32,435 nucleotides of DNA, taken from IMG/VR virus record IMGVR_UViG_2690316131_000024; one strand, given 5' to 3'. The notes beneath the pieces are model-generated. The model had not been told where the DNA came from, did no database searches, and saw only the letters and a list, made by a program, of their open reading frames with translations. Positions 1,958 to 17,362 of the stretch are shown here, piece by piece. Position 1 is the stretch's first letter. Each line of letters begins with the position of its first letter. This stretch comes from a virus. Lineage: Duplodnaviria > Heunggongvirae > Uroviricota > Caudoviricetes. Made by a program: the position numbers and the translations under genes.

Positions 1958-4405
1958 TTAACCGTCATGCATCATGCTGGCACGGGCGCGCGCACGTTTA
2001 TCCCGCTCGTATTTTTCGAGCGCATCCTGTAACTGGCGGTCGAGCTGTGTCCCCGGCGCAGTACCACCCGTCAGGCTGATGTGATATTCGTTTTTACTCT
2101 GGTCTACATAAGAGCGGCCAGCCGGTGCCGTGACCGGCTGATAAGCCTGATAACCTGCATAAGAGCTGGTCGCCGGAATATAACCACCGCTGCCATACGT
2201 GGCGGCTTGAGTTCTGGCGGCGGTCTGGTCAAGTGTGTCTGACTCTTTGTTGATAACACCGAGTTTTTCCAGTACCCAGTCAATACCACTGCGCAGTTTA
2301 TTGAACGCATTAAGCGGCAGCATCAGCGCGTCAGCCAGTGCCTGCCCGAACATGACGCCCGTGTCACGGCAACGGTTCAGGGTGTCCTGGGTGGCTTTGA
2401 CCGGGGCAATCAGGTTTTTAAACCACTGCCACGCGGCCTGTAACTTTTCACCCAGCCAGTCAAACACCGGTTTAAGTGGCGTGAACAGTTCCCCCACCGG
2501 CGCAAATGCCGCTTTCAGCCCTTCAACCACACCGCCAAAGAATGCGCTGACAGGCTCCCAGTATTTACGGATAAGCAACGCCCCGGCGACAATGGCGGCC
2601 ACCACGGCCACAACCGGCCAGCTAATCGCCCCGATGGCGGTTATAACAGCACTGCCAACCGTCGTGAAGATTGCCCCCATTGCGCCTGCTGCCGCGATGA
2701 TGGCATTGATGCCAGTGATAACCGGCCAGGCTACAAGACCAATTGCACCGATGATGCCAGTCAGCGCCAGCGCGCCACCGGCAATGAGGCCAATGGTTGA
2801 CGCCAGTGATTTGTTTTTCTGTATCCAGCCGTCGAGTTTTAACACATACTTTGTGGCCGTCTGTGTGAGCTTACGCAGTGCGCCTTCCTGCTGGTCAAAC
2901 AGGTCAGTCCCCACCGCCTCATAAGCGGACTGAAACTCCTTAAAGTCACCGCCGAGGTTGTCCTGCATGATATTTACCAGCTCTGCGGTCTTCCCGTCTG
3001 AGGCTTTAAACGCAGCGGTCAGTTTGTCCAGCTTTCCGGTTGACGCGGCAGTCATCAGCACGGCGGCGGCTGAGCTGGCCTCCTCCCCGAAAATAGTTTT
3101 CATGTATTCAGCCTGCTGGGCAGTACCGAGCCGGTTTTTCTCAAAACTGGCCTGCATTTCTTTCAGAATGGTAAATATTGGCCGGGTGTTTCCCTTGCTG
3201 TCTGAGGTTTTCACTCCAAGCTCTTTGAGTGCATCCCATGCTTTTCCCGTCGGTGCCTGCAGGCGGCTTAACACGGCACGGCTTCCCGTCCCCGCCATTG
3301 AGCCTGTGATTTTTGCATCATGCAGCGCCCCGACCATTGCGGCGGTTTCTTCAATGCTGACACCGGCATTTTTTGCCACAGGTGCGGCATAGGTCAGCGC
3401 ATCGCTCATGCCGTCAAAATCGGCGGCGGTTTTGTTCATCGTCATGGAGAGAACATCCCCGATATGAGCGACCTTATCGTTTGAAAGCTGAAAGGCGGAT
3501 TTCATCCCCATCAGCAGGGCGGCGTTTTCTTCCATCGTGCGGCGGTTCGCCAGCGCCATATTCAGCGTGACCGGCGTTGCCGCCTGAATGGCATCAACAT
3601 CCCCACCCGCTTTCGCGATGATTATCTGTGCACCGGCCGCATCATCCGCCGAGGCGGCGGTATTGTCGCCGAGCTGCCGCGCCTGTTTGCGGAGTGCGGT
3701 CATTTCGGCGGAGTCTTTTGCCACTCCGAGCACGGCCTGCAATTCTGAGTTTTTCTGCGCAAACTCATAACCGGGCATCAGCAGCTTAACTCCGGCCATC
3801 GTTCCCGCCGCCGCAATCCCCACACCGGCAGCGCCCACCGAGGCCATATTTCCGGCCAGTTCCTTTCCGGCCTGATAACGCTGTTTGACTGCGTTAAGTT
3901 TTGCCTGTTGCGCACTGACACGCGCCAGCGCGTCGCGCTGACGGTTAAGCTGTGCGGTGGTTTCACTGATACGGTTTTTCAGTCCCTGCTCATCATGTGC
4001 AAGATTGCGGGTATTAATTCCCACAGCGGCCAGTTCCCGCTGCTGGCGTTTAACGGAATCCGTCAGGCGGTTATATTTCGCCTGTAAGTCCTCCGCCGCA
4101 CGCTTTGCGGATTCCAGCACTTTCGCCTGAGCACGTGTCGGACGTTCGGTGTTTTTAAACTGTGTGGCAAGGGCTTCGGCCTCCTGCCGTGCCTTTTCAA
4201 GTGCATGACCAGTCACGGCGAGCTGTGCACTGGTCTTGCGAAATCCCTCAATACGGGATGCCTGACCGTTCAGCTCGCGCAGTGATTTTTGTGTTTCCCG
4301 GATATCCGCCGACAGCGATTTGCTCGCTGTGCGGATGGATTTAAACGGGCGGGATGCCTGGTCAACAGCCCTGAGCAATACCTGTAATTTTACATTGTTA
4401 CTCAT
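1958..4405 (-). CDS. T: Tail tape measure protein, 815 aa
   Basis: 815-aa Ala/Gly-rich protein with coiled-coil N-terminus and hydrophobic glycine-zipper segment, directly downstream of E/E'. Confidence 0.9.
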   Translation of the reverse strand: MSNNVKLQVLLRAVDQASRPFKSIRTASKSLSADIRETQKSLRELNGQASRIEGFRKTSAQLAVTGHALEKARQEAEALATQFKNTERPTRAQAKVLESAKRAAEDLQAKYNRLTDSVKRQQRELAAVGINTRNLAHDEQGLKNRISETTAQLNRQRDALARVSAQQAKLNAVKQRYQAGKELAGNMASVGAAGVGIAAAGTMAGVKLLMPGYEFAQKNSELQAVLGVAKDSAEMTALRKQARQLGDNTAASADDAAGAQIIIAKAGGDVDAIQAATPVTLNMALANRRTMEENAALLMGMKSAFQLSNDKVAHIGDVLSMTMNKTAADFDGMSDALTYAAPVAKNAGVSIEETAAMVGALHDAKITGSMAGTGSRAVLSRLQAPTGKAWDALKELGVKTSDSKGNTRPIFTILKEMQASFEKNRLGTAQQAEYMKTIFGEEASSAAAVLMTAASTGKLDKLTAAFKASDGKTAELVNIMQDNLGGDFKEFQSAYEAVGTDLFDQQEGALRKLTQTATKYVLKLDGWIQKNKSLASTIGLIAGGALALTGIIGAIGLVAWPVITGINAIIAAAGAMGAIFTTVGSAVITAIGAISWPVVAVVAAIVAGALLIRKYWEPVSAFFGGVVEGLKAAFAPVGELFTPLKPVFDWLGEKLQAAWQWFKNLIAPVKATQDTLNRCRDTGVMFGQALADALMLPLNAFNKLRSGIDWVLEKLGVINKESDTLDQTAARTQAATYGSGGYIPATSSYAGYQAYQPVTAPAGRSYVDQSKNEYHISLTGGTAPGTQLDRQLQDALEKYERDKRARARASMMHDG

Positions 4406-4577
4406 TCGTGTTTCCGCTTCGCCGGAGCGCCTTTTCGCGCCATGTGATGAGTTCGGTCAGGCTCATGGGATACAGTTCTGATGGCGGCCAGTGAAATATC
4501 ACTGCCACATCCGCCATCAGGTCATCGACCGAGAGATTTTTTGGAAACGTCACTGCACCGAGTTCGGCGACAAAAAA
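4398..4577 (-). CDS. E' extension, read in the -1 frame after slippage in the 3' end of E (gives gpE+E')
   Basis: Minus-strand mRNA reads GGT TTT TTG (T6G slippery run at + coords 4571..4579), 7 codons before the E stop. By hand translation the -1 frame stays open for about 58 codons to a TAA at 4398..4400 overlapping the T start. Confidence 0.6.
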   Translation of the reverse strand, partial: FFVAELGAVTFPKNLSVDDLMADVAVIFHWPPSELYPMSLTELITWREKALRRSGNTNE

Positions 4578-4825
4578 CCGACCACCTTACCGGCCAGCGC
4601 CACAAGGTCAGGCAGTTCCAGCGCGGCGACTTCCTGCTCGGTCAGCATCGGTGCCGTCATGCGCGGCAGCACCTTAATCAGTGCATCGACTTCGGAGTTT
4701 GCAACCGCAGCCAGACTGACACCGCGTAGCGTCCCGGCATTGGGTTTCATCAGCGTGACCTGTTCGATAACCTGCTCACCACGTTTGACCGGATTGTCCA
4801 GGGTAATGACATTTTCTTTGTTCAT
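4550..4825 (-). CDS. E: Tail assembly chaperone gpE, 91 aa
   Basis: 91-aa ORF between FII and T, same size and position as P2 gpE; ends ...KVVGFLSPNSVQ with the slippery site inside. Confidence 0.85.
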   Translation of the reverse strand: MNKENVITLDNPVKRGEQVIEQVTLMKPNAGTLRGVSLAAVANSEVDALIKVLPRMTAPMLTEQEVAALELPDLVALAGKVVGFLSPNSVQ

Positions 4826-4853
4826 GGTTTTCTCACTTCTGAATCAGGGTTAA

Positions 4854-4874
4854 CCGGCCAGCCAGGCTGACCGG
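4854..4874 (-). terminator. Imperfect GC-rich hairpin between FII and E (possible attenuator)
   Basis: ccggccagcc-a-ggctgaccgg forms a 9/10-bp stem immediately after the FII stop; no strong U-tract. Confidence 0.25.
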
Positions 4875-4881
4875 ATGAAAA

Positions 4882-5400
4882 TCACAGGCCGATATTGCGG
4901 CGGTGTTGCTCCAGCCGGTCGACGCCGTTCACCTTTTCAATCATGTTGATGGTGTCAATTTCGACCAGCTCCTTACCGTCCATCGTCAGCCGGAAATAGG
5001 TGCAGACCACGGAGATTTTCGACTCGGTGTCTTCTCCCTGTTTGCCCTCGCCGGTGTCGATTTCTTTCTGACGTCCACGCATGACCACTTCGACGGCCAC
5101 CGTTTCGCCGGTATCGTCGCGCTGGTAAGAGCCTGCAAAACGAATCGGCACGGCATCCACGCCGGTTGCGGCGTAAAGCTCCCAGATAACCGAATCCGGG
5201 AAACCACCGAGCGACCACTCCATTGACAGCGCATCGTCATCAAGGCCGAGGTCTACCGGTGCGCTGCCGTTCATCCCCGCACCGCGATAGTTTTCTAGCT
5301 TACGGGTCAGTTTTGGCAGCGTGACGGACTTTGCAACGCCCTGATAGCTGTAGCCGTTCAGAAAGACGTTCATTAACTTGAGTTTGCGCGGCATTGCCAT
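4882..5400 (-). CDS. FII: Tail tube protein FII, 172 aa
   Basis: 172-aa ORF directly downstream of the sheath gene, same length as P2 FII. Confidence 0.9.
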   Translation of the reverse strand: MAMPRKLKLMNVFLNGYSYQGVAKSVTLPKLTRKLENYRGAGMNGSAPVDLGLDDDALSMEWSLGGFPDSVIWELYAATGVDAVPIRFAGSYQRDDTGETVAVEVVMRGRQKEIDTGEGKQGEDTESKISVVCTYFRLTMDGKELVEIDTINMIEKVNGVDRLEQHRRNIGL

Positions 5401-5412
5401 CGGTCAGGCTCC

Positions 5413-6603
5413 TTAATTGCTGTTAACCGAGGTGACCAGATTTGCCAGGTATTTATCGGTAATACGCTGGCGCAGGGTCAGGTTTTCAAGAGGAGGCACC
5501 GGTGTATAGTCGTAGTCGATATACAGTTTTCCGGCCTTGAGGGTTTCCGCATCGTTGGATTCTTCGCTGAACCAGCAGGTCGCATCCACGATATAGCCGT
5601 TTGTTTTCAGCTCACGGAATTTGGCATTGATGCCGTCAACGATGTCGCGAATCAGCGTTGCGGTGATGGGCTTGTCCACCGCCCACATGTGCGCCTCAGC
5701 CATCGTGTCGGCCAGCACCTGCGCGGTGCGGGTGTAGTTTTCAAAGAGGAACAGCGGGTCATCAGAGCAGGTACGGTTACCCCAGAAGCGGAAACCGTCG
5801 CGGCGAATCAGCGTTGTGACGCCTGACTCGTTAAGCAGGTCAGCATCGGTGCCGGACTCCTGCAAATCCCAGAATACAGATGCGCTGATGCCGGTAACAC
5901 CGTTCACCCCGACGTTGGACAGCGTTTTATGCCAGCCCTGCTCCTGGTCGATTTTGGCACGCAGACCCAGCGCACGGGCGGTGGCATACGCGGTGGCGGT
6001 GGTACTGGTGACCGTATCCCATGCGAGGAAATCCGGCCAGATGACCATCAGCTCACGCTGGCTGAAATTCTGGCGGTAGGCTTTCACCTCGGAAATGGTC
6101 TTACAGCCCCATGCGCTGATATACCCGAAAGCGCGCAGCTTCTGACAGACTGATGCCAGTGCAACCGCCACCTCTTTGGTGTCCAGTCCCGGCACACCGA
6201 GAATACGCGGTTTAACACCGGTTACCGACTCCGCCGCCAGCAGGGCTTTTAGTCCGGTGTACTGACCGTTTTCGTCGGTGGTGCCGATGATATTGGAAAC
6301 GGTCTGCGCGAGTTTCGTTTCCTCGTCATCACCGGTGCCGTCTTCCACGCGCACGACAACGGTGACCGGTTTTGACTGGTCAGCGATGGCCTGCAACGAT
6401 GCCGCCAGCGTGCCTTTTTTACCGGCCTTTGCAATTGCGCTCTGCACATTGGTAATCAGCACAGGTTTATTGAGGGGGAAGGTTTCCGCATCCGCATCGC
6501 TGGCCGTGCAGACCATGCCGACAATGGCAGTGGATACGGTGGAAATGACGCGGGTGCCGTCGTTAATCTCCAGCACCTGCACGCCGTGATGATAGTCACT
6601 CAT
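5413..6603 (-). CDS. FI: Contractile tail sheath protein FI, 396 aa
   Basis: 396-aa ORF, same length and position as P2 FI; first gene of the FI-FII-E-T-U-D operon. Confidence 0.9.
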   Translation of the reverse strand: MSDYHHGVQVLEINDGTRVISTVSTAIVGMVCTASDADAETFPLNKPVLITNVQSAIAKAGKKGTLAASLQAIADQSKPVTVVVRVEDGTGDDEETKLAQTVSNIIGTTDENGQYTGLKALLAAESVTGVKPRILGVPGLDTKEVAVALASVCQKLRAFGYISAWGCKTISEVKAYRQNFSQRELMVIWPDFLAWDTVTSTTATAYATARALGLRAKIDQEQGWHKTLSNVGVNGVTGISASVFWDLQESGTDADLLNESGVTTLIRRDGFRFWGNRTCSDDPLFLFENYTRTAQVLADTMAEAHMWAVDKPITATLIRDIVDGINAKFRELKTNGYIVDATCWFSEESNDAETLKAGKLYIDYDYTPVPPLENLTLRQRITDKYLANLVTSVNSN

Positions 6604-6662
6604 CCGTTTAACTCCGTGGTTAATGGGTGAGTGGTATTTTCAGTTGTGCCGGAGATGTCAGG

Positions 6663-7262
6663 CTATTTGTCCCGGTTGGCTAAGGGATGACACAATTTAT
6701 TCTTTGTCGCTGATGAGGGAAATTTTTTATAGAGCGTGGACAGGCCAATATCAAAAATCAGCGCCACACGTTGACGAGATTCCCCCGCAGCCAGCAACCG
6801 TCCGACCTGCTCCCACTCACTCGCGGTGAGTTTCGGACGTCTGCCACCAATACGACCTTTGGCTCTGGCCGCTTCCAGTCCGGCGCGTGTCCGCTCGACA
6901 ATGAGTTCTCGCTCCATTTCAGCCAGGGCACCCATCACATGAAAGAAAAAACGCCCCATCGGCGTGCTGGTATCAATAGCATCCGTCAGACTGCGAAAAT
7001 TAACGCCGCGTTCGCGCAGTTCCTCAACCAGAATGACCAGATGCCGCATACTACGCCCCAGCCTGTCCAGCTTCCAGACTACCAGAGTGTCACCTGCTGA
7101 TAATGTTCTGAGCAGTTTTTTCAGTCCCGGTCTGTCGGACTTCGTGCCGCTGATTTTATCCTCAAAAATCCGCTCGCATCCTGCGCACTCCAGCGCGTTA
7201 CGCTGCAATTCCGTGTTCTGGTCATTTGTTGACACGCGTACATAGCCAATAAGCATGAGCAT
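6663..7262 (-). CDS. Serine DNA invertase (Gin/Cin/Pin/Hin family), copy 1
   Basis: N-terminus MLIGYVRVSTNDQNT with catalytic Ser motif, ...GRIGGRRPKL and a C-terminal HTH (ALIFDIGLSTLYKKF) typical of Hin-family invertases. First 193 aa identical to copy 2; reads 6 codons past the repeat boundary. True start may be the Met two codons in (7256). Confidence 0.88.
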   Translation of the reverse strand: MLMLIGYVRVSTNDQNTELQRNALECAGCERIFEDKISGTKSDRPGLKKLLRTLSAGDTLVVWKLDRLGRSMRHLVILVEELRERGVNFRSLTDAIDTSTPMGRFFFHVMGALAEMERELIVERTRAGLEAARAKGRIGGRRPKLTASEWEQVGRLLAAGESRQRVALIFDIGLSTLYKKFPSSATKNKLCHPLANRDK

Positions 7263-7330
7263 CCCCCTGAATAAAAACCGGAGATGATGCCAGTTGCCCG
7301 TTATCTCTGCATTTTCATAAACGTTGGTTT
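6683..7330. repeat. 648-bp direct repeat, copy 1 (invertase gene plus crossover site)
   Basis: Offset 1358 bp to 8041..8688; both boundary sequences were compared by eye, and the ORF translations on both strands inside the two copies are identical. Confidence 0.85.
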
Positions 7331-7337
7331 AAGAGCA
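7312..7337 (+). other. cix/gix/hix-like crossover site (site 2)
   Basis: TCATAAACG-TT-GGTTTAAGA; identity to the H-embedded site begins exactly at TTGGTTT, centred on the TT dinucleotide at 7324..7325. Confidence 0.7.
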
Positions 7338-7634
7338 AGCGGGCAGTACACCGATAATTTGTTATTTACAGGTCCTGATGGTCTTAAGATTCAGGTGTTT
7401 CGCCGGACGCTCGCAAATTTGACTACTGTCGGTGTAGTAAATTCTGTGCCAGTGACTTTCCCTGTCCCGTTCCCTGTTAATTGCTGGGGCGTTTTTTCTA
7501 CCAAATTAACATGGGTTCAGATAACTAACTCATGCGAGTGGGTAAGTAATACAGGATTTACCGCTCAGGTCATGATGAATATTGCTGTAAATACAAACAC
7601 CTCAGACGCTATGTTTTTAGCTATAGGATATTAA
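7324..7634 (+). CDS. Silent tail-fibre C-terminal cassette V1' (duplicate of the currently expressed H C-terminus)
   Basis: Translation LRASGQYTDNLLFTGPDGL...AMFLAIGY is identical to the last ~100 aa of H (10200..10510, minus strand). It has no N-terminal constant region and is only expressible after inversion. Confidence 0.8.
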
Positions 7635-7635
7635 T

Positions 7636-8040
7636 ATGAATCATTTTGTGTTCAGTCCATCTGAGTCCCGTTTTTATGCCATCGAGTGGCAGGCTGATTA
7701 TGTTGATAATAATTGTTGGCCACATGATGCCATTAACGTTAGTGACAGCATTTATTATGAGTTTTCCGGCACTCCCCCTACAGGTAAGCAACTTATAACT
7801 TTAAATAACATGCCAGCATGGGGTGATATTCCTCCACCTACACGAGAAGAATTAATTGTCGCTGCTGATGTGGAGAAGCAAAAAAGAATAGATTTAGCCA
7901 ATGATTACATGAACGGTAAGCAATGGCCTGGTAAAGCAGCTATTGGTCGTCTGAAAGGTGAGGAACTGGCACAATATAATTTGTGGCTGGATTATCTGGA
8001 CGCACTGGAGCTGGTCGATACCGCCAGTGCGCCAGATATT
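7636..8040 (+). pseudogene. Truncated duplicate of tail-fibre assembly gene tfa1 (tfa1'), fused by read-through into invertase repeat copy 2
   Basis: First 135 aa identical to tfa1 (9758..10198). Identity ends at ...ASAPDI at the repeat boundary; the last 11 aa of tfa1 are replaced by repeat-derived read-through up to 8187. Confidence 0.75.
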
Positions 8041-8620
8041 AGGGATGACACAATTTATTCTTTGTCGCTGATGAGGGAAATTTTTTATAGAGCGTGGACA
8101 GGCCAATATCAAAAATCAGCGCCACACGTTGACGAGATTCCCCCGCAGCCAGCAACCGTCCGACCTGCTCCCACTCACTCGCGGTGAGTTTCGGACGTCT
8201 GCCACCAATACGACCTTTGGCTCTGGCCGCTTCCAGTCCGGCGCGTGTCCGCTCGACAATGAGTTCTCGCTCCATTTCAGCCAGGGCACCCATCACATGA
8301 AAGAAAAAACGCCCCATCGGCGTGCTGGTATCAATAGCATCCGTCAGACTGCGAAAATTAACGCCGCGTTCGCGCAGTTCCTCAACCAGAATGACCAGAT
8401 GCCGCATACTACGCCCCAGCCTGTCCAGCTTCCAGACTACCAGAGTGTCACCTGCTGATAATGTTCTGAGCAGTTTTTTCAGTCCCGGTCTGTCGGACTT
8501 CGTGCCGCTGATTTTATCCTCAAAAATCCGCTCGCATCCTGCGCACTCCAGCGCGTTACGCTGCAATTCCGTGTTCTGGTCATTTGTTGACACGCGTACA
8601 TAGCCAATAAGCATGAGCAT
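8039..8620 (-). CDS. Serine DNA invertase (Gin/Cin/Pin/Hin family), copy 2
   Basis: 193 aa, identical to copy 1 over its whole length; its stop codon spans the repeat boundary. Confidence 0.88.
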   Translation of the reverse strand: MLMLIGYVRVSTNDQNTELQRNALECAGCERIFEDKISGTKSDRPGLKKLLRTLSAGDTLVVWKLDRLGRSMRHLVILVEELRERGVNFRSLTDAIDTSTPMGRFFFHVMGALAEMERELIVERTRAGLEAARAKGRIGGRRPKLTASEWEQVGRLLAAGESRQRVALIFDIGLSTLYKKFPSSATKNKLCHP

Positions 8621-8688
8621 CCCCCTGAATAAAAACCGGAGATGATGCCAGTTGCCCGTTATCTCTGCATTTTCATAAACGTTGGTTT
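8041..8688. repeat. 648-bp direct repeat, copy 2 (invertase gene plus crossover site)
   Basis: See copy 1; the repeat ends at TTGGTTT, after which V1' (aagagc...) and V2 (gggaga...) diverge. Confidence 0.85.
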
Positions 8689-8695
8689 GGGAGAA
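8670..8695 (+). other. cix/gix/hix-like crossover site (site 3)
   Basis: TCATAAACG-TT-GGTTTGGGA; same left half as site 2, right half belongs to V2. Confidence 0.7.
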
Positions 8696-9184
8696 GGCTC
8701 TGCATTACCGGTTGGGGTGCCTGTTCCGTGGCCTTCAGCCACTCCGCCAACAGGCTGGCTGAAATGCAACGGTGCCGCTTTTTCTGCTGAAGAATACCCG
8801 GAACTGGCAAAGGCTTATCCGACAAATAAATTGCCTGATTTACGTGGTGAGTTTATTCGTGGCTGGGATGACGGGCGTGGTATTGATGCTGTACGTGCCT
8901 TGCTAAGTCTTCAGAATGGAGGAGTGGAATCACACACCCACCAAGGGCAGCTCTTCAGAGTTAGTGATTATCGTACAAAAGAAATACCAGCATCAGAAGT
9001 TATGGGAAGAGGATATATTGCAAGCCTGACGCCGGGTGCTGATAGCCCACTTGATTTTGATGATTATTCTGTATCTTCTAATCCAAATGGATATTTTGTC
9101 GGGAATCAGAGAACAACAGCATATGGGATAAATGAAACCCGTCCACGGAATATTGCATTTAACTATATCGTGAGGGCTGCATAA
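8684..9184 (+). CDS. Alternative tail-fibre C-terminal cassette V2 (receptor-binding segment)
   Basis: In frame with the crossover site; translation GEGSALPVGVPVPWPS...GEFIRGWDDGRGID...NETRPRNIAFNYIVRAA is a typical P2/Mu-type fibre C-terminus. No start of its own; expressed only when joined to H by inversion. Confidence 0.8.
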   Translation, partial: GLGEGSALPVGVPVPWPSATPPTGWLKCNGAAFSAEEYPELAKAYPTNKLPDLRGEFIRGWDDGRGIDAVRALLSLQNGGVESHTHQGQLFRVSDYRTKEIPASEVMGRGYIASLTPGADSPLDFDDYSVSSNPNGYFVGNQRTTAYGINETRPRNIAFNYIVRAA

Positions 9185-9786
9185 TGGATAACGCTGTATT
9201 AAATAGCGAGTTTATTGCTACAAAGGCGGGGAATATTACCGTCTATAACTATGATGGCGAAACACGGGAATATATTTCCACATCAACTGAATATCTTGCC
9301 GTTGGTGTCGGTATCCCTGCATATTCCTGTTTAGATGCCCCTGTCACATACAAAGCTGGTTATGCAATCTGCCGATCTGTAGATTTTAACTCATGGGAAT
9401 ATGTGCCAGACCATCGCGGTGAAATCGTCTTTAGCACCGAAACAGGAGAATCAAAAGAAATCACAGTTCCGGGTGATTACCCTGATAATACAACCACTAT
9501 CGCCCCGTTAACGCCATACGATAAATGGGATGGTGAGAAATGGGTGACGGATACCGAAGCACAGCATAGCGCCGCAGTAGATGCAGCAGAAGCACAGCGC
9601 CAGTCACTGATTGATACTGTAATGGCTTCAATCAGTCTGATTCAGCTGAAATTGCAGGCCGGACGTAAACTGACGCAGGCAGAAACAACCAGCCTTAACA
9701 CTGTGCTGGATTACATTGACGCGGTGACAGCAACAGATACGAGCACCGCGCCGGATGTCATCTGGCCTGAACTGCCGGAGGCGTAG
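9184..9786 (+). CDS. Tail-fibre assembly chaperone for V2 (tfa2), 200 aa
   Basis: Immediately follows V2 with stop/start overlap; conserved Tfa C-terminal region; converges with tfa1 with 3' overlap. Confidence 0.8.
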   Translation: MDNAVLNSEFIATKAGNITVYNYDGETREYISTSTEYLAVGVGIPAYSCLDAPVTYKAGYAICRSVDFNSWEYVPDHRGEIVFSTETGESKEITVPGDYPDNTTTIAPLTPYDKWDGEKWVTDTEAQHSAAVDAAEAQRQSLIDTVMASISLIQLKLQAGRKLTQAETTSLNTVLDYIDAVTATDTSTAPDVIWPELPEA

Positions 9787-10198
9787 GCCATTCAATATCT
9801 GGCGCACTGGCGGTATCGACCAGCTCCAGTGCGTCCAGATAATCCAGCCACAAATTATATTGTGCCAGTTCCTCACCTTTCAGACGACCAATAGCTGCTT
9901 TACCAGGCCATTGCTTACCGTTCATGTAATCATTGGCTAAATCTATTCTTTTTTGCTTCTCCACATCAGCAGCGACAATTAATTCTTCTCGTGTAGGTGG
10001 AGGAATATCACCCCATGCTGGCATGTTATTTAAAGTTATAAGTTGCTTACCTGTAGGGGGAGTGCCGGAAAACTCATAATAAATGCTGTCACTAACGTTA
10101 ATGGCATCATGTGGCCAACAATTATTATCAACATAATCAGCCTGCCACTCGATGGCATAAAAACGGGACTCAGATGGACTGAACACAAAATGATTCAT
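9758..10198 (-). CDS. G: Tail-fibre assembly chaperone (gpG-like, tfa1), 146 aa, currently in the expressed orientation
   Basis: Directly downstream of H with start/stop overlap; position equivalent to P2 G. Confidence 0.85.
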   Translation of the reverse strand: MNHFVFSPSESRFYAIEWQADYVDNNCWPHDAINVSDSIYYEFSGTPPTGKQLITLNNMPAWGDIPPPTREELIVAADVEKQKRIDLANDYMNGKQWPGKAAIGRLKGEELAQYNLWLDYLDALELVDTASAPDIEWPTPPAVQAR

Positions 10199-10199
10199 A

Positions 10200-11336
10200 T
10201 TAATATCCTATAGCTAAAAACATAGCGTCTGAGGTGTTTGTATTTACAGCAATATTCATCATGACCTGAGCGGTAAATCCTGTATTACTTACCCACTCGC
10301 ATGAGTTAGTTATCTGAACCCATGTTAATTTGGTAGAAAAAACGCCCCAGCAATTAACAGGGAACGGGACAGGGAAAGTCACTGGCACAGAATTTACTAC
10401 ACCGACAGTAGTCAAATTTGCGAGCGTCCGGCGAAACACCTGAATCTTAAGACCATCAGGACCTGTAAATAACAAATTATCGGTGTACTGCCCGCTTGCT
10501 CTTAAACCAAGGTATGTGAGAAGACCAGCTACATCCTTTCCACTCAAATTAGTCAGCGTCTCATCCAGTGGCTGCTTACCTGACAGCGCATTGTTAATGG
10601 TGGTGCTGAATTTCGGGTCATTGTTAATGGCCGCGGCAATTTCTTTCAGTGTGTCCAGCGTGTCTGGCGCGCCGTTAATCAGAGCGGTAATAGCGGCCTG
10701 AACAAACTCAGTGGTCGCAATCCGCGTGGTGTTATTTCCTGCGGCAGGCGTCGGCGCTTTTGGTTCTCCGGTAAATGTCGGATTATGTTTCTGCGCATAC
10801 TGGGTATGAGGATCCTGTGCGACAATGTGGTTTCTCATCTGGTCATCCACATACAGCTTTAATTCCAGGACTTCATCATCCACGTATTTACGGGTCGCCA
10901 GTACCACCGACGGGTCGATTTTCAGCGTAATAGCTTCGGTATTCGTGACAACCAGAATCATGCGGATAGTCTGGGTACGACCACTGCCTTCCTGTAACTG
11001 CGGTTTGTACGTTTCCGGGCAGTTCGCCACCGCAATGAGTACGCCTTCATCATCATAAAGCCCAATCTCACGGATCCAGAATCCGCCCTCGTTCTCAGGG
11101 ATGATTTGCTCCGCAATAATCTGGCTCTGGTTGTTCGGGTCAACACTCAGAAGATTCAGCGGCGCGATGCGTTTCTGGTTAATCAGTTTTGTCTGTGCCG
11201 GGTCTGGTGTCGGCAAGACACCATTCGCATCACCAACGGCCATTTGCGTCAGATTCAGCTTACTGCCGAGCATCGTCGCGTTAGCCAGCCGTGCTGCGCC
11301 CTGATTAGTCAGAATGGCGTAGTATTTCACTGTCAT
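10200..11336 (-). CDS. H: Tail fibre protein H (constant N-terminus plus invertible C-terminal segment V1), 378 aa
   Basis: N-terminus MTVKYYAILTNQGAARLANA...MAVGDANG resembles the P2 H / Mu S N-terminus; the C-terminal ~100 aa lie beyond the embedded crossover site at ~10510. Confidence 0.88.
   Translation of the reverse strand: MTVKYYAILTNQGAARLANATMLGSKLNLTQMAVGDANGVLPTPDPAQTKLINQKRIAPLNLLSVDPNNQSQIIAEQIIPENEGGFWIREIGLYDDEGVLIAVANCPETYKPQLQEGSGRTQTIRMILVVTNTEAITLKIDPSVVLATRKYVDDEVLELKLYVDDQMRNHIVAQDPHTQYAQKHNPTFTGEPKAPTPAAGNNTTRIATTEFVQAAITALINGAPDTLDTLKEIAAAINNDPKFSTTINNALSGKQPLDETLTNLSGKDVAGLLTYLGLRASGQYTDNLLFTGPDGLKIQVFRRTLANLTTVGVVNSVPVTFPVPFPVNCWGVFSTKLTWVQITNSCEWVSNTGFTAQVMMNIAVNTNTSDAMFLAIGY
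10497..10522 (-). other. cix/gix/hix-like crossover site embedded in H (site 1), inverted relative to sites 2 and 3
   Basis: On the minus strand TCACATACC-TT-GGTTTAAGA; right half identical to site 2, left half from the H constant region, i.e. the hybrid sites expected after past inversion. Confidence 0.7.
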
Positions 11337-11944
11337 GCGTTTACTCTCAGGTTATCAATTAAATGAATGGCCGAGGCCGGGAAATAATCCCCTCCGACAA
11401 TAATGGCCTCCGGGGTGTAGGGATAAACCGTCAGGGCGTCGCCGTGATAGCATCCCGCACCGGCAAAAATGTTGCCGGTTGTACTTAAACTGATAGCCAG
11501 TCCCGTCAGATGGCGGCTCGCCGGTTTTGCATCAGCAACGAGGCGCTCCAGCTCCTGATACATTTCTTCGGTAATACCCTGCTCAAGCACGCCAACAACG
11601 ATACGGAACGTCCCCGGCTCCTCGTTGAGCTGCCACCACTCCCTCACCTCAATCAGATAGCCGAGCGGCTCCACCACACGCCGGATTGCACCTATAGTGC
11701 CTTTATGACAGTGAATGAAATACGCATCGCGGATAACAGCGCGTTTTGTCGCTTCCGGCCACTTATCATCCCAGCGGTCAACCGAAAATGACCACGCCAG
11801 CCACGGCAGCAGATTTGCCTGGCAGGTATCCGGGTTCCACAGTTCACGAATACTGACCGGCGTTTTTTCAATTTCCGCACAGGCTTTTGCGGCGGCGACT
11901 TCAAGCGGTGATGAGCCGGTCGGCAGCAGGCGCGAATCACTCAT
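11333..11944 (-). CDS. I: Baseplate protein I, 203 aa
   Basis: Between J and H with overlapping stop/start codons on both sides; order J-I-H as in P2. Confidence 0.85.
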   Translation of the reverse strand: MSDSRLLPTGSSPLEVAAAKACAEIEKTPVSIRELWNPDTCQANLLPWLAWSFSVDRWDDKWPEATKRAVIRDAYFIHCHKGTIGAIRRVVEPLGYLIEVREWWQLNEEPGTFRIVVGVLEQGITEEMYQELERLVADAKPASRHLTGLAISLSTTGNIFAGAGCYHGDALTVYPYTPEAIIVGGDYFPASAIHLIDNLRVNA

Positions 11945-12845
11945 CCGAGCCTCCGGTCACGACGCGGTATTCGGTGCAGAAAGACGCCTGCGTGCTGTTA
12001 AGCACGATATCGGCCAGCGGTGCAGCCAGTTCGACACGCTGCACGCCTTCCACATGCAAAGCGGCATAAATGGCAGACAGACGGATGTCGCGCCCCAGCC
12101 GGTGCTGTGCCGTGATGTACGCTTCCAGCTTTTTCACGGCGGCGGCGCGGATGGGTTCGCTTTCGGGACCAGGGTAAAGGTAAAGCGTGGCGTTTATCTG
12201 GTATTCAACGATGGCGGCAGACTGCACGGTCACGCGGTCGGCCACCGGCCTGACGTCCTCGCCATTAAGGGCATTACGCACCACCGCCAGCAGGTCTTCG
12301 GATGCGACACCGTTATTTTCACGTGACAGCACAGAGATGGTGACGCAGGCCGGAGAAGGACTGGTGACAGAGATATCCGCGACACGCCCGTCGGCACTTC
12401 GACCATGATACTGATAGGCCCCCACCGACCCGGCGACGCTTAAACCTTCAAACGCCTGCTGAATACGCAGACGATAATCGGTGTCAGATTCCATCACGGC
12501 CGGTGTCGGCGGGATAGTCGAATCATCTGCCGGGGTGATAATCAGGCGCGTGGTGTTGTAATTGGCACCAATCACATCAAGGTCATTACCGGCAGCACAG
12601 GCCAGCATCACCGCCCGTGCGGCCTCATTCACACGCTGACGCCAGATAAGCTCACGATAAGCATTTTCCTCCAGCAGTTTGACGAGAGGCTCAGATTCCA
12701 GCGTCAGGGTACGGGCGACCGCCTCCTGCTGGTCTTCCGGGTAAAGGGAAATCAGTGTCGCCTTGCGTTCGGCAAGAATGGTTTCAAAGTCCAGCTCCTC
12801 GACCACATCCGGTGCGGGTAGCTGGTTCAGGTCGATAATCGGCAT
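11937..12845 (-). CDS. J: Baseplate wedge protein J, 302 aa
   Basis: 302-aa ORF, same length and position as P2 gpJ. Confidence 0.88.
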   Translation of the reverse strand: MPIIDLNQLPAPDVVEELDFETILAERKATLISLYPEDQQEAVARTLTLESEPLVKLLEENAYRELIWRQRVNEAARAVMLACAAGNDLDVIGANYNTTRLIITPADDSTIPPTPAVMESDTDYRLRIQQAFEGLSVAGSVGAYQYHGRSADGRVADISVTSPSPACVTISVLSRENNGVASEDLLAVVRNALNGEDVRPVADRVTVQSAAIVEYQINATLYLYPGPESEPIRAAAVKKLEAYITAQHRLGRDIRLSAIYAALHVEGVQRVELAAPLADIVLNSTQASFCTEYRVVTGGSDE

Positions 12846-12849
12846 GGTT

Positions 12850-13197
12850 TCAACTCACAGGGATGGTTAACGAAAGTGGCTGGCCGGTGTCGTTGTGCTG
12901 GCCGGTTAACGTGACCGTCATTCGCCCGTCAAAACTGCGCTCAGTGGTGACGGATGACAGGGTGACGCGGGGTTCCCATTTCAGCACCGCCATGTAACAG
13001 GCGACCTTAATCTGCAACTCAAGCGCCGGGGTCTGCGGCTGGTCAATCATTGATGCCAGCAACGAGCCGTAATCACGACGCATCACCCGTGAGCCGACCG
13101 GTGTGCGCAGGATATCGCCGATACTCTGGCTGATATGCTCAAGGTCAGTGACAGTCTGGCCATCACTGCGATTCATTCCGAGATAACGCGCTGTCAT
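12850..13197 (-). CDS. W: Baseplate protein W, 115 aa
   Basis: 115-aa ORF between V and J, same length as P2 gpW. Confidence 0.85.
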   Translation of the reverse strand: MTARYLGMNRSDGQTVTDLEHISQSIGDILRTPVGSRVMRRDYGSLLASMIDQPQTPALELQIKVACYMAVLKWEPRVTLSSVTTERSFDGRMTVTLTGQHNDTGQPLSLTIPVS

Positions 13198-13829
13198 AAA
13201 GGACTCCCGGTTGTGCCGCCGCTGTCGCCGGGGTGTTTGTGGGTATGCAGTACCTTACCGTTTGATGAGAGTTCACCGCCGGTGTGTTCAATGTTGCCGC
13301 GCATCGTCCCGCCCTTCTGCACTTCCAGCGTGCCGGTAGTCAGTTTGTTAGTGCAGACCACTTCCGGTGTGTCCAGGGTGACACGGGTTGACGCTTTCAC
13401 CGTGACCACCGGTACCGTGGCAGTAACAGAATCAGAAGCCGTCACGCTGGCCGTTTTAATTCCGCTTACCGTGAGTGCACTGGTTTCGGGTTCATACTCA
13501 ATCACCGCCCCGTCAGGGAAACGGATATGCAGGGCATCCGCCGACGCAGACGGCGCGGGGTTATCGCCGGAATAAATCCCCGGCAGAACGAACGCCGTGT
13601 CGAGTTCACCGCCCACGGACAGAATCAGCACCTGTTCCCCCACGGAAGGTGCCCACCATGTGCGCGAACGACCGGCGCGATGGGTCAGCCACTGAAGCCA
13701 GTCAGTGCACATGCCGCCGGTCTGCACACGGCAGCGACCGGCGTTAAGGTCGGTTTCGACGACAAGGCCGGTGCGGATCATGTTGCGCAGTGCGCGCGCG
13801 AGTTCCTGAATATTTGCGAGAGTGTTCAT
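13194..13829 (-). CDS. V: Baseplate spike protein V, 211 aa
   Basis: 211-aa ORF, N-terminus MNTLANIQELARALRNMIRTG, same length as P2 gpV; first gene of the V-W-J-I-H-G operon. Confidence 0.9.
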   Translation of the reverse strand: MNTLANIQELARALRNMIRTGLVVETDLNAGRCRVQTGGMCTDWLQWLTHRAGRSRTWWAPSVGEQVLILSVGGELDTAFVLPGIYSGDNPAPSASADALHIRFPDGAVIEYEPETSALTVSGIKTASVTASDSVTATVPVVTVKASTRVTLDTPEVVCTNKLTTGTLEVQKGGTMRGNIEHTGGELSSNGKVLHTHKHPGDSGGTTGSPL

Positions 13830-13840
13830 AACGGGAAGGA

Positions 13841-13864
13841 TGCCGCCGGGTCATACCGGCGGCA
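13841..13864 (-). terminator. Perfect 9-bp GC-rich hairpin between S and V (candidate terminator for the O..S operon)
   Basis: tgccgccgg-gtcata-ccggcggca, followed on the minus strand by a pyrimidine-rich stretch; sits at the boundary between two P2 late operons. Confidence 0.4.
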
Positions 13865-13895
13865 ATGTGACGATGAGGTGTCGGGAATGGCACAA

Positions 13896-14348
13896 CTAAC
13901 GGTCGAGGTGCGCCAGAATAATCTCTTCAATCATCTGCACATCCTCACCGGTAAAGCCGAGCAGGGGACGCGCCGGATAATCAATTTTCTTACCGTCTTT
14001 CCGGTTTTCTTCCGACAGACCGAACTGATGCACACTGGCGATTTTCGGTGACTTTCCGCCGTAAAATTCCATTGATGCCTGTTCCGGGCTGGCGCGGATA
14101 TGCAAAAAACGACTGGTGATAAGTTTCGCAAACATTTTTCGCTTAACACGACCAGTCTTTTTTCTGGCGCTCTGCTGCTGGCGTGGCACGTAGGGTGTGC
14201 CGTCCGGGGCTTTCTGAGCCATCACCCGACGCTGCTGACTCTGCCGCAGACGCTTCGCCAGCTCTGCACTCAGCCGCCGACGCCCTGACGGTGACAGCGA
14301 TTCAATAAGTCCGGTCAGCCGGTCTTCAAAACGCTTAAACTCATTCAT
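13896..14348 (-). CDS. S: Tail completion protein S, 150 aa
   Basis: 150-aa ORF, same length and position as P2 gpS; overlaps R by 8 nt. Confidence 0.85.
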   Translation of the reverse strand: MNEFKRFEDRLTGLIESLSPSGRRRLSAELAKRLRQSQQRRVMAQKAPDGTPYVPRQQQSARKKTGRVKRKMFAKLITSRFLHIRASPEQASMEFYGGKSPKIASVHQFGLSEENRKDGKKIDYPARPLLGFTGEDVQMIEEIILAHLDR

Positions 14349-14808
14349 CCCACTTGCTCACCAGTTCGCCATTGATATAAAGCTCCACCGGGCGGGTGAC
14401 CGGCTCCGGCGGCGGAGGTTCCGGGATATTCTTCACATGCAGTGCGCCATCCACCTCACTGACCAGCGTGCGCTCGGTCAGCATCAGGCTGATGCTGATA
14501 TCAAAGCTGCTGTCATTGTTGATGTCCGCATAAAACGTGAAGCCCTTTTTCTGGCCTTCGTCGGTGGTCATGATGTCGGGCTGATTTTCCCGCAGCCACG
14601 CCAGCACCGGCACGATGAGCAGGTCAAAATCACCGGTAAAGTCGGTCACAATGACATTGAGCGTGTAACGCTTTTCAAATGACAGCGACGTCGCCAGTGT
14701 GGAGGCAATACTCCCGTTATCCACGAATATCCGCAGCATCTCGGGACTGGTTTTCAGCACCGTGACGGCATCAGTCAGCGCCCTGCGCAGGCTGTCGGGT
14801 TTGAGCAT
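14341..14808 (-). CDS. R: Tail completion protein R, 155 aa
   Basis: 155-aa ORF, same length and position as P2 gpR. Confidence 0.85.
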   Translation of the reverse strand: MLKPDSLRRALTDAVTVLKTSPEMLRIFVDNGSIASTLATSLSFEKRYTLNVIVTDFTGDFDLLIVPVLAWLRENQPDIMTTDEGQKKGFTFYADINNDSSFDISISLMLTERTLVSEVDGALHVKNIPEPPPPEPVTRPVELYINGELVSKWDE

Positions 14809-15061
14809 CGTTTTCGTCCTGACAGTGTTTAATCATTTTTACCTGGCTGGCACAGCGTGCCAGCGCGTTCTCAAGCTGTCGGATATCGGCACTTAAATCG
14901 CCGTTCGTCTCCGGGTCACTGCCCGGCATCGGGCAAAGGCTCACTTTCGGGCAGGCGTTGGCGACAATCACTGGCGTCGGTGCAGGCCGGGCGCTGGTGC
15001 AACCGGCGCACAGCATCAGGCAGGCCAGCGCCGTACCAGTGGCGAAAATCTTCGTTTTCAT
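14771..15061 (-). CDS. lysC: LysC, Rz1-like outer-membrane lipoprotein (o-spanin), 96 aa
   Basis: Signal peptide ending in a lipobox (LMLCAGC), Pro-rich mature part; begins inside lysB in another frame and extends into R, as in P2. Confidence 0.75.
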   Translation of the reverse strand: MKTKIFATGTALACLMLCAGCTSARPAPTPVIVANACPKVSLCPMPGSDPETNGDLSADIRQLENALARCASQVKMIKHCQDENDAQTRQPAQGAD

Positions 15062-15341
15062 TCAGTAACCTCGTGATGGTTTTCTCGCGCTGTGCTTCAC
15101 GCTTCGCCGCGTTCTCCAGTTCCTGACGCAGTGCCACCTGCGCCAGCTCGTTTTTGTCTGCCCTGGTGATGGCAACATGAAGCTGATTTTTCAGCATGGT
15201 GATGGTCGTCTGCTGTTCACTGGCGACGTTATTCGCCCTGTCCAGCGAGGCGCGCAGGCTGGCATTTTTGTGTTTCATCAGAAACAGACCGGCCACCGCC
15301 AGTGATAACAACACAACCAGCACAATCATCAGCTTTGACAT
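14916..15341 (-). CDS. lysB: LysB, Rz-like inner-membrane spanin (i-spanin), 141 aa
   Basis: N-terminal transmembrane helix followed by a charged coiled-coil region; same length and position as P2 LysB. Confidence 0.8.
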   Translation of the reverse strand: MSKLMIVLVVLLSLAVAGLFLMKHKNASLRASLDRANNVASEQQTTITMLKNQLHVAITRADKNELAQVALRQELENAAKREAQREKTITRLLNENEDFRHWYGAGLPDAVRRLHQRPACTDASDCRQRLPESEPLPDAGQ

Positions 15342-15754
15342 GGTTCCCGCCCCTCAAAACGCTGACGGCAGGCCGTACGTATCAGCCGGAAGAACACCGA
15401 TGCCACGAGATAAATCAGCGCGGTAAAAATCCACCCGGCGGCAACCAGCGAGATAAACGTCGCCACCATCACCACCAGAGCCGCCGCCCGTCTGCACCAC
15501 GGCACCGGCTGCAAAAACAGCGACGTGACAATCTTCACGGCCAGCGATTCCGGCGGCAGCTCCCGCCCGTAGCGTTCCAGCACATACTCAGTGGCATACA
15601 CGCCGACACCACCGGCAACCACACAGATAACCGTCGCCAGAATCGCCCAGGCGGCGACAAAATTGACGGCCACGCTCTGCGGGTAAATCAGGGACAGTGC
15701 CAGCATCAGCGCCAGCGACACGTTCAGCATCAGTGAAAGGGATAATTTCTTCAT
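15329..15754 (-). CDS. lysA: LysA membrane protein (lysis timing / antiholin-like), 141 aa
   Basis: Polytopic hydrophobic 141-aa protein between K and lysB, same length as P2 LysA. Confidence 0.8.
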   Translation of the reverse strand: MKKLSLSLMLNVSLALMLALSLIYPQSVAVNFVAAWAILATVICVVAGGVGVYATEYVLERYGRELPPESLAVKIVTSLFLQPVPWCRRAAALVVMVATFISLVAAGWIFTALIYLVASVFFRLIRTACRQRFEGREPCQS

Positions 15755-15768
15755 GGTGTTTACTCCGT

Positions 15769-16266
15769 TTAAGCCGGTACGCCGCCGGCGGTACGCCAGA
15801 CGGTGACCAGTTTTTCCAGTGAATGCTCACGCTGACCGTAACCGGCACCCGGCAGGGACGCCCAGATATTGCGACAGCGTGAAATGGCGCGCTCAATGCG
15901 TCCCGCCCGGATGTCATCCAGTGCACCGCGTTCGCGGATCAACTGAATGGCGAGCCTGTCCTGTGACAACGGACTGAAATCCGGCAGGGCAAGCTGTTTG
16001 CGGTAGTGCGGCCAGAACAGGTAAAGCTGCTGATAGCGACCGGAGGCCGTGGATTTTTCACCGCGACGGTTAAACACCTTCGCCGGTCGGCCATGCGCGA
16101 ACGGGTGGTCACTGTAGTCGGTGAAGATTTCCGGCTTTCCGTCCAGTCCGGTGACTATCACGTCATAGCCCCGGTTTTTCGTCAGCGGATGATTCGCCGT
16201 CCCTTCGGACACGGCCAGCATGTCGAGAAAGGCGGCGATATTCTGATGCGTGTTAATTACCGGCAT
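15769..16266 (-). CDS. K: Endolysin (lysozyme) K, 165 aa
   Basis: 165-aa ORF immediately downstream of the holin, same length and position as P2 K. Confidence 0.88.
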   Translation of the reverse strand: MPVINTHQNIAAFLDMLAVSEGTANHPLTKNRGYDVIVTGLDGKPEIFTDYSDHPFAHGRPAKVFNRRGEKSTASGRYQQLYLFWPHYRKQLALPDFSPLSQDRLAIQLIRERGALDDIRAGRIERAISRCRNIWASLPGAGYGQREHSLEKLVTVWRTAGGVPA

Positions 16267-16547
16267 TACGGTTTCCCCCTGCCCTTAAAGCGGCGCTGAA
16301 TGGCAATCTCAATCACCTGATAACCGGCGATACCCAGCATGGAGCCGATGCCGCACACCGCAGGCAGTGACAGGTCAGGAAACTGCACCAGAACAACACC
16401 GGCAACCATCGAGACAAAACCACCGAGCAACATGCGCCCGATAAACAGACGCGGGGTGATGGGTTCACCACCGGCAAGCACCTTGCCGACAACAATCAGC
16501 ACCCCAATCATGAAAAGCGACAGGACGCTTTTTTCTTCTGCTGTCAT
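16266..16547 (-). CDS. Y: Holin Y, 93 aa
   Basis: 93-aa protein with transmembrane segments and a charged C-terminus, same length and position as P2 Y. Confidence 0.85.
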   Translation of the reverse strand: MTAEEKSVLSLFMIGVLIVVGKVLAGGEPITPRLFIGRMLLGGFVSMVAGVVLVQFPDLSLPAVCGIGSMLGIAGYQVIEIAIQRRFKGRGKP

Positions 16548-16550
16548 GCG

Positions 16551-17263: not shown

Positions 17264-17362
17264 GACTACCTCTGAAAAGTCGGGCGGTGGACGCCGGTGC
17301 AGTGTCAGGTGATTCACCCTCACTGACCGGCGTGCCGCCCTGGCGCGGGGCGCATTCGGTTG

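Follow-up and report, generated by a model that had tools for sequence, protein, structure and literature searches.

A probable two-site tail-fibre inversion switch in a P2-like prophage, with an apparent invertase duplication from a scaffold join

The tail-fibre region of the stretch of DNA analysed here (the window; 32,435 nucleotides, IMG/VR record IMGVR_UViG_2690316131_000024) is very probably a conventional two-site inversion switch of the Pin/Gin family in a P2-like (Peduovirus) prophage, with the apparent extra copy of the invertase region being an assembly join. In the mechanism that we propose, a single serine invertase gene, flanked by the fibre genes and the sheath gene and occupying the position of P2 fun(Z), would encode an enzyme that acts on two inverted 26-bp sites, with the exchange at the TT in their centre. 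With one site upstream of the invertase gene and the other within the coding sequence of the tail fibre gene H, recombination would flip the 1,825-bp segment that the sites bound (8684-10508). Orientation A would then express Hc-V1 followed by tfa1, and orientation B, Hc-V2 followed by tfa2.

Architecture of the cassettes, crossover sites and invertase

The open reading frames and Pfam domains of the window follow the P2 gene order (ogr-D-U-T-E-FII-FI ... G-H-I-J-W-V ... Q/P ... A ... cox-C-int), and its ~97% identity to Peduovirus genomes over 80-94% of 21.8 kb places it among the P2-like (Peduovirus) phages. From window position 6684 leftwards, the pF region does not differ from P2. Reference P2 carries fun(Z) between G and FI and has no invertase, in agreement with the statement in the preliminary description of this DNA that P2 itself has no such switch.

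The H gene (10200-11336, minus strand) is composed of a constant N-terminal part, Hc (10509-11336; Phage_tail_fib, Pfam PF12571, E = 1e-62), and the C-terminal cassette of the currently expressed orientation, V1 (10200-10508; Gp53-like_C). It is followed on the same strand by tfa1 (9758-10198; Pfam Caudo_TAP), the TfaP-like chaperone gene paired with V1. The plus strand holds a silent, StfE-like alternative fibre C-terminus, V2 (8684-9184; Pfam Collar), with its own TfaE-like chaperone gene, tfa2 (9184-9786; Pfam Caudo_TAP). In the domain search each C-terminal cassette was thus directly followed by its own Caudo_TAP chaperone, and both cassettes and both chaperones are intact by Pfam. The preliminary description had claimed both halves of this arrangement, namely a constant H N-terminus continued by V1 and tfa1, and V2 with tfa2 on the opposite strand, and the reading frames and domain matches bear it out.

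The current orientation yields, in the in silico model, a 378-aa Hc-V1 protein followed by tfa1. In silico inversion joins Hc in frame to V2 to form a 442-aa protein, with tfa2 directly after it, and the size and domain layout of this protein are those of natural H proteins, for example that of locus L004. The Hc/V1/V2 layout, with a site inside the fibre gene, fits invertible tail-fibre segments of the Mu G, P1 C and e14 P type. The differing domains of V1 and V2 suggest that the two cassettes bind different receptors and that their exchange would make a real difference in host range.

A degenerate site pattern has exactly three matches (24-26 bp) in the window, versus 0 expected from 100 shuffles. 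Two of these, sites 2 and 3, are intact, lie in inverted orientation and both contain the central TT, as expected for the imperfectly palindromic 26-bp sites of such invertases, which share one central dinucleotide. Site 2, the left crossover site on the invertase side in the assembled orientation (8670-8695, plus strand), reads TTTTCATAAACG TT GGTTTGGGAGAA; it is identical to the e14 site adjoining pinE (TTCTCCCAAACCAACGTTTATGAAAA) and aligns with Mu gixR. Site 3, the right-hand crossover site (10497-10522, minus strand), lies within the H coding sequence and reads TTCTCACATACC TT GGTTTAAGAGCA on the minus strand. Either cassette stays in frame because the central TT of site 3 sits in the CTT (Leu) codon of ...LTYLGL....

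The one real copy of the serine DNA invertase gene (6663-7262, minus strand) likely starts with the ATG at 7256, giving a protein of 197 aa. This protein shows Pfam matches to Resolvase (E = 8e-53) and HTH_7, contains the catalytic-serine motif YVRVSTNDQ and has the N-terminal catalytic domain and C-terminal HTH DNA-binding domain of a small serine recombinase. It aligns over its full length to the Gin structures 3UJ3 and 4M6F (E = 4e-94) and shares 79.6% identity with Mu Gin and 86.2% with e14 PinE; an NCBIfam search of the protein returned no equivalog at or above cut-off. A public gene collection lists the exact 197-aa sequence in 2,419 blocks, and the sequence is single-copy in all 11 complete or draft genome loci inspected.

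The Gin, Cin and Pin systems use a cis-acting recombinational enhancer located within the 5' region of the invertase gene, with two Fis sites 48 bp apart. A candidate counterpart (7149-7211) is found at the corresponding place here, where two Fis-like cores of 15 bp each (7197-7211 and 7149-7163) have their centres 48 bp apart, as defined by a very loose motif with 11 matches in 306 nt. The cores lie at positions aligned with Mu gin and have the same spacing. Judging by an alignment with Hin made by eye, the R-L pair in the ...GRLL... stretch of the invertase appears to be conserved with Arg154/Leu155 of Hin. These Hin residues contact Fis, which acts at the enhancer of such inversion systems (PMC3798978). 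Dependence of the present switch on Fis and an enhancer would be consistent with these sequence features, although the motif is too degenerate to prove it. A promoter and terminator scan gave nothing decisive.

The duplicated block at the invertase side

The block at 6684-8041 (1,358 bp) interrupts this layout. It repeats the invertase gene and the left half-site, continues with V1-tfa1 in the other orientation and ends bluntly. Positions 6683-7330 recur as a direct repeat at 8041-8688 (647 nt), and 7324-8040 recur inverted at 9794-10510 (717 nt), each with 100% identity. The junction 8040/8041 displays no homology or microhomology. The public source record (GCA_001284925.1, contig CYDD01000040.1; locus L095) equals the window over 13,137 nt with the exception of one position: window position 8041, an 'A', is an 'N' in CYDD01000040.1, exactly at the block junction.

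Because the source record has an N at the junction base and otherwise matches the window, the second invertase gene, the third site and the second V1/tfa1' very probably result from the scaffolding of two overlapping contigs across a single N. Two draft contigs would have overlapped over the invertase region and diverged since one of them followed DNA of the other orientation, and the scaffolder would have placed the two next to each other across a gap of one N, which reads as 'A' in the window. The stretch at 7326-8040 (plus strand) is 100% identical to the reverse complement of 9794-10508 and stops at the N join; it holds V1 and codons 1-135 of tfa1, here connected to the invertase side, and would be the end of the alternative-orientation contig. 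The second invertase 'copy' (8042-8620, minus strand), 100% identical to 6684-7262, would be the start of the second contig, its 3' end being cut by the contig end and not by biology. Site 1 (7312-7337, plus strand; TTTTCATAAACG TT GGTTTAAGAGCA) equals site 2 in its left part through TTGGTTT and site 3 in its right part from TTGGTTT; it would represent the left site as read in the other orientation, owed only to the scaffolded contig end.

The true locus would therefore contain one invertase gene and two sites. Deletion of 6684-8041 leaves the canonical locus with two sites, whereas multiple-inversion systems, such as the shufflon, Min of p15B and the three-site EPEC P2-like locus, are defined by at least three functional sites in one replicon, from which more than two arrangements arise. 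In the undisturbed relative CUPS04 the span is exactly 4001 - 1358 = 2643 bp, and four relatives with an identical H protein have the single-copy layout and two sites. The preliminary description, which does not mention the direct and inverted repeats, had assigned several invertase genes to the locus, the second of which belongs to the 1,358-bp block with the N junction. The half-site combinations it gave for hybrid crossover sites were correct as described, but they do not amount to a three-site locus, site 1 being a product of scaffolding.

We consider it extremely unlikely that the 1,358-bp block is instead a genuine recent tandem duplication that formed in the other orientation and was followed by one inversion, which would create a small shufflon with three sites, two invertases and four states, three of them expressing V1 and one V2. 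Formally the structure does fit duplication followed by inversion, and a three-site, four-variant switch exists in an EPEC P2-like prophage (PMC4272514). The invertase would also not remove such a duplication, because wild-type invertases do not resolve directly repeated sites (PMC3798978). However, with an N as the junction base of the source record, no sequence read-through stands behind the join, the two copies are 100% identical, and relatives that share the H protein have one copy each. Identical topologies are found at this place in three other IMG/VR scaffolds (L047, L052 and L023), as aberrant joins that likewise each contain a single N; the problem affects 3 of the 79 IMG/VR loci with this invertase. 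Further, searches of 5,426 complete E. coli genomes, of the GTDB representatives, of IMG/VR, of JGI metagenomes and of a phage collection did not recover the junction, which lacks microhomology, and the proteins specific to it (a 183-aa tfa1' fusion and 193- and 191-aa invertases) had no exact match in the gene index. The source record itself annotates a 224-aa ORF at the junction instead, presumably read across the N.

Several accounts of a two-invertase locus were tried and rejected. Action of the invertase at quasi-sites does not explain the junction, as neither partner is site-like and the central dinucleotides differ (TT versus TA). The 'Hin1' and 'Hin2' of phage vB_EcoM-813R1, taken as a possible precedent for two invertases, are a single gene split by a frameshift. 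The real tandem duplication or three-site shufflon, which we modelled as four states, was rejected in view of the N at the source-contig junction.

Both orientations in the assembly and among relatives

If the block is a scaffolding artefact, both orientations must have reached the assembler. The data thus indicate that both were present in the sequenced DNA, and we infer from the assembly structure alone that they coexisted in one culture. The alternative-orientation contig end could also stem from a second near-identical prophage or tail-module copy elsewhere in the genome, fixed in the opposite orientation, in which case the population would not be mixed. Such genomes exist: LS992171.1 holds two of these modules (L002/L003) ~18 kb apart and in opposite orientations, as two prophage copies with a common IS21 insertion and swapped half-sites, and homologous places number a median of 2 and up to 13 per E. 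coli genome. We nevertheless regard a second copy as unlikely here, given that both repeats (647 and 717 nt) match at 100% identity, that overlap of scaffolded contigs at one locus is the simplest account, and that clonal cultures with the homologous e14 switch hold both orientations at approximately equal abundance (PMC4272514).

Both arrangements are found among relatives. The predicted Hc/V2 junction is present in 478 of the 5,426 complete E. coli genomes (at least 80% coverage), and the same DNA junction search recovered the Hc/V1 junction of the window in 9. In L004/L005 the half-sites are swapped as in L002/L003, with the exchange exactly at the TT.

That the switch is a decayed relic, no longer inverting and frozen in its arrangement, is very unlikely. 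IS insertions do lie in the segment of many relatives (IS5 in TBE6, IS21 in L002/L003/L098 and IS1 in L010). Against decay, the invertase is encoded by an undamaged ORF and exactly matches a very widespread protein, neither the two sites nor the cassettes and chaperones show damage, and the same assembly holds the left junction in both states.

Relation to known switches and implications

The preliminary description had placed the locus with the Mu G and P1 C switches. Its P2-like tail operon and two alternative tips hold; the closest characterised relative is the Pin/P-segment of e14 rather than Gin or Hin. In addition to the invertase (86% identity to PinE) and the identical invertase-side site, V2 shares 66% identity with StfE, tfa2 88.5% with K-12 TfaE and, over 92 aa, tfa1 63% with TfaP. 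The layout in E. coli K-12 is alike, with the invertase outside the segment and two convergent cassettes, and the segments measure 1,797 bp in e14 and 1,825 bp here. By contrast, e14 is a defective lambdoid remnant while the present prophage is P2-like and apparently complete, its constant part is of the P2 H type (Phage_tail_fib), and its V1 Gp53-like_C tip is unrelated to StfP.

Mu G/Gin and P1 C/Cin share the recombinase family (80% identity for Gin) and the logic of a constant part with alternative C-termini and paired chaperones. Their 26-bp sites are homologous and equally distant from the invertase start, and the 5' coding region in which the Mu enhancer lies is conserved. However, the central dinucleotide of Mu gix is GA/TC versus TT/AA here, the cassettes show no sequence relationship with Mu S/U and S'/U', and the phage backbone differs.

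The nearest loci in P2-like phages are those of the EPEC E2348/69 prophages, Escherichia phage pro483, Peduovirus magyaro (O157:H43 T22) and an E. coli CUPS04 prophage. They share the order I-H-tfa, tfa-V, invertase, FI and 93-97% DNA identity with the present locus, which, without the artefact block, does not differ from them in any substantive way. Three sites and three C-termini do occur in one EPEC prophage, but not in this window. Inversion has been demonstrated experimentally in e14 and in two EPEC P2-like prophages (PMC4272514). Such switches are already known and widespread in P2-like prophages, and the present one offers nothing new beyond the e14, Mu, P1 and P2-like cases. In e14, inversion of the P-segment creates StfE2, which blocks adsorption of phage T2 (PMC12529663). 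There is a very slim chance that the StfE-like Hc-V2 state could likewise yield a receptor-masking, fibre-derived protein that protects the lysogen, or that the invertase could do so by acting in trans on e14-type sites elsewhere in the chromosome.

The picture of two invertases and three hybrid sites should not be propagated in annotation, and removal of 6684-8041 gives the true locus. Single-N joins at invertible loci can be mistaken for tandem duplications, the N in the present case having silently become a base, and scans for shufflon-like or multi-invertase architectures need a filter for them. The artefact also has a use, as cheap evidence of an active switch, the outcome of which would be phage particles with two alternative receptor-binding tips.

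Gene content and repeats of the tail-fibre region

The tail genes lie on the minus strand in the right-to-left order gpI (11333-11944), the 378-aa tail fibre H (10200-11336) and tfa1 (9758-10198), a Caudo_TAP chaperone by Pfam. Opposing them on the plus strand are V2, an alternative C-terminal cassette read as a 180-aa ORF that ends at 9184 and carries a Collar domain on its C-terminal 165 residues, and tfa2 (9184-9786), a second Caudo_TAP chaperone. Leftward follow a Resolvase+HTH_7 gene (8039-8620, minus), a tfa1-like ORF (7636-8187, plus), a second Gp53-like_C ORF (7284-7634, plus), a second Resolvase+HTH_7 gene (6663-7262, minus) and the sheath gene FI (5413-6603, minus). A degenerate pattern derived from the crossover sites of the preliminary description matched the window exactly three times (7312-7335 and 8670-8693, plus; 10499-10522, minus), against zero matches expected in 100 shuffles. 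The fibre cassettes, chaperones, invertase genes and sites that this description had listed are all present, the sites at far above chance.

The whole 32.4-kb window contains only two long repeats, both 100% identical. The first is direct, with 6683-7330 repeated at 8041-8688 (offset 1,358 bp), while the second is inverted and pairs 7324-8040 with 9794-10510. Together they define a 1,358-bp block (6684-8041) that contains the invertase gene and its neighbouring half-site once more, followed by the C-terminal cassette V1 and tfa1 read as if the segment were flipped. The tfa1 copy within the block breaks off sharply past codon 135. The junction, which reads GCGCCAGATATT up to 8040 and AGGGATGACAC from 8041, lacks microhomology, and the sequence on neither side is like a crossover site.

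The duplicated block as a scaffold join

The 8040/8041 junction was not found in 5,426 complete E. coli genomes, nor in GTDB species representatives, IMG/VR, JGI metagenomes or the phage collection, and the junction-specific proteins had no record in a 153-billion-gene index. In E. coli CUPS04, the nearest relative with the locus undisturbed, the same query covers exactly 4001 - 1358 = 2643 bp, with one recombinase gene. The exact H protein retrieved NCBI contig CYDD01000040.1 (GCA_001284925.1; L095 among the compared loci), which equals the window across 13,137 bases (window 4200-17336) with a single exception: window position 8041, the junction base of the block, is 'A', and the contig has 'N' there (its position 9296). 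All these observations agree, and the apparent duplication is therefore two contigs with overlapping ends, set side by side by a scaffolder. A single n is the usual scaffolder output for a non-positive gap in which no overlap is detected. The identical H protein occurs in four other assemblies, all with a single-copy layout (L096, L097, L099 and L100). In the window the ambiguity or gap character is rendered as 'A', which masks the join, and further replacements of N by a base are possible outside 4200-17336.

The left contig stops 717 nt inside the segment in orientation B (the constant N-terminal part of H, Hc, fused to V2), and the right contig starts 647 nt to the left of the site and reads into orientation A (Hc fused to V1, as assembled). 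These ends coincide with module boundaries: identity to the P2 pF/FI backbone starts at 6684, and 8040 is the counterpart of 9794, 8 nt past the stop codon of the oppositely oriented tfa2. Branching of the assembly graph at such boundaries would be unsurprising.

The first model was a true tandem duplication that arose while the segment was flipped, with one inversion afterwards, giving a three-site, four-state locus with two invertase genes. It was dropped on the 'N' at the junction; that the block is physically real is highly improbable. The preliminary description thus stands in part, both as an observation and as an interpretation: its tail-fibre switch was right, and the picture of three hybrid sites and plural invertases arose from the assembly.

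We compared 79 IMG/VR loci carrying close homologues of the invertase. The topology of L047 is that of the window (invertase, site, V cassette and truncated tfa, then a 3'-truncated invertase, site and the other cassette), and L023 and L052 have aberrant joins of other kinds, with a single 'N' at or beside the odd joins of all three. These 3 of the 79 loci are the chimera-like arrangements with single Ns, and the scaffolding artefact appears to recur at invertible loci. Their odd joins include an Hc-type site fused to sheath codon 30 or 321, and Hc codon 141 fused to tfa2 codon 164. In two further IMG/VR loci, L031 (3565-6591) and L050 (3444-6567), the invertible segment lies between two distinct, inverted invertase genes, with no N; these genes are 88% and 98% (L031) and 88% and 87% (L050) identical to that of the window. 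The outer gene adjoins non-phage genes (GIY-YIG; EcoRII-C plus Dcm; AraC). These loci look like real inversions between sites of two separate Pin-type loci, splitting a P2-like prophage.

The two-site locus and its relatives

Removal of 6684-8041 leaves a single invertase gene and two inverted 26-bp sites that bound a 1,825-bp invertible segment (8684-10508). The left site (8670-8695, plus) is TTTTCATAAACG TT GGTTTGGGAGAA and the right site, within H (10497-10522, minus), is TTCTCACATACC TT GGTTTAAGAGCA. The left site has the sequence of the e14 site beside pinE, and it aligns with Mu gixR, the two being equally far from the start codon. The invertase shares 79.6% identity with Mu Gin and 86.2% with K-12 e14 PinE, and it matches Gin crystal structures over its full length (E = 4e-94). 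Gin/Hin-type invertases act in a Fis/enhancer invertasome with intramolecular inversion as the exclusive outcome (PMC3798978). The 5' portion of the invertase gene contains two loosely matching Fis-like cores (7197-7211 and 7149-7163, 48 bp apart), which occupy aligned positions in Mu gin, a weak fit to a candidate enhancer as in the Gin family.

Between crossover site and invertase start codon, on the minus strand, is a terminator-like hairpin (AACTGGCATCATCTCCGGTT then TTTATT; 7276-7295 and 8634-8653), partly kept in Mu upstream of gin, which might restrain fibre-operon transcription from running on into the invertase gene. The final ~12 invertase codons (6664-6700, minus) overlap a stretch that corresponds by alignment to the activator-binding site annotated for pF, the P2 late promoter. 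P2 identity begins at 6684 (TTAGCCAACCGGGACAAATAGCC...), a TTGTG element is retained upstream, and the switch-module boundary abuts the FI operon promoter.

P2 itself has no switch, as the preliminary description stated; its order is H, G, terminator, fun(Z) and FI operon with no invertase, and fun(Z) stands where this phage has the module. In essence the module combines the e14 P-region with the constant part of P2 H, V2 being 66% identical to StfE, tfa2 88.5% to TfaE and tfa1 63% to TfaP. The public gene collection lists the exact 197-aa invertase in 2,419 blocks, and each of the 11 loci inspected in complete or draft genomes has it as a single copy in the canonical layout. Of 5,426 complete E. 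coli genomes, 3,306 show some match to the region. Deposited P2-like phages, among them pro483 and Peduovirus magyaro from O157:H43 T22, share the layout, with an annotated DNA invertase.

The P2 old/tin hotspot of the window holds convergent cargo: a 652-aa GHKL/MORC-like ATPase (23502-25460, plus; HATPase_c_3; best PADLOC match a 'type II REase' model, 2e-91) and an adjoining Dcm-like C5 cytosine methyltransferase (25503-26654, minus). The related phage PhiR44_1 has an annotated ParaMORC3 plus Dcm, and the exact ATPase occurs in 3,344 index blocks, in prophages integrated beside cpxP/cpxRA.

Inversion has been shown experimentally in e14, with orientations about equally abundant in clonal cultures, and in two P2-like prophages of EPEC E2348/69, one with two variants and the other with three sites and four variants (Goldberg et al. 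2014, PMC4272514). Systematic surveys of programmed inversion place tail-fibre genes among the classic targets (PMC9881135). A tail-fibre switch of this type is therefore already known. By analogy with e14 and PinQ, for which an adsorption block by StfE2 is described (PMC12529663), inversion might also protect the host, a reading that is highly improbable.

Evidence for inversion

The central TT falls within the CTT codon of ...LTYLGL..., so exchange there preserves the frame, and inversion in silico converts the 378-aa Hc-V1 fibre to a 442-aa Hc-V2 fibre directly followed by tfa2. The predicted Hc-V2 junction is present in 478 of 5,426 complete E. coli genomes (at least 80% coverage, identity up to 98.3%) and the Hc-V1 junction of the window in 9. 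The Collar/StfE-like fusion is about 50 times commoner than the Gp53-like one, and V1-tfa1 is the rare partner (window 10390-10630 region and relatives). IS elements (IS5, IS21, IS1) are frequent inside the segment in relatives.

Both orientations are found among relatives, with the variable half-sites exchanged exactly at TT (L004 versus L005 and, clearest, L002 versus L003). The latter are two copies in one complete genome (LS992171.1, 2953787-2988658), with P2-like tail modules ~18 kb apart, opposite segment orientations and a common IS21 insertion, which sits in a tfa gene. The pair documents a natural inversion subsequent to duplication, or it may be a further assembly problem. Site 1 of the window (7312-7337, plus) is common with the left site leftward up to and including TTGGTTT and with the right site rightward from TTGGTTT, and is the same kind of inversion footprint.

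One contig runs from the invertase-side site into V1-tfa1 that is 100% identical to the V1-tfa1 joined to Hc on the other contig; hence either both orientations of the locus were present in the sequenced DNA, which is the likelier reading, or there were two copies, each fixed in a different state. Inversion at TT would be very recent in this lineage under both readings alike, and the sequence lends indirect support to the earlier inference of an active switch.
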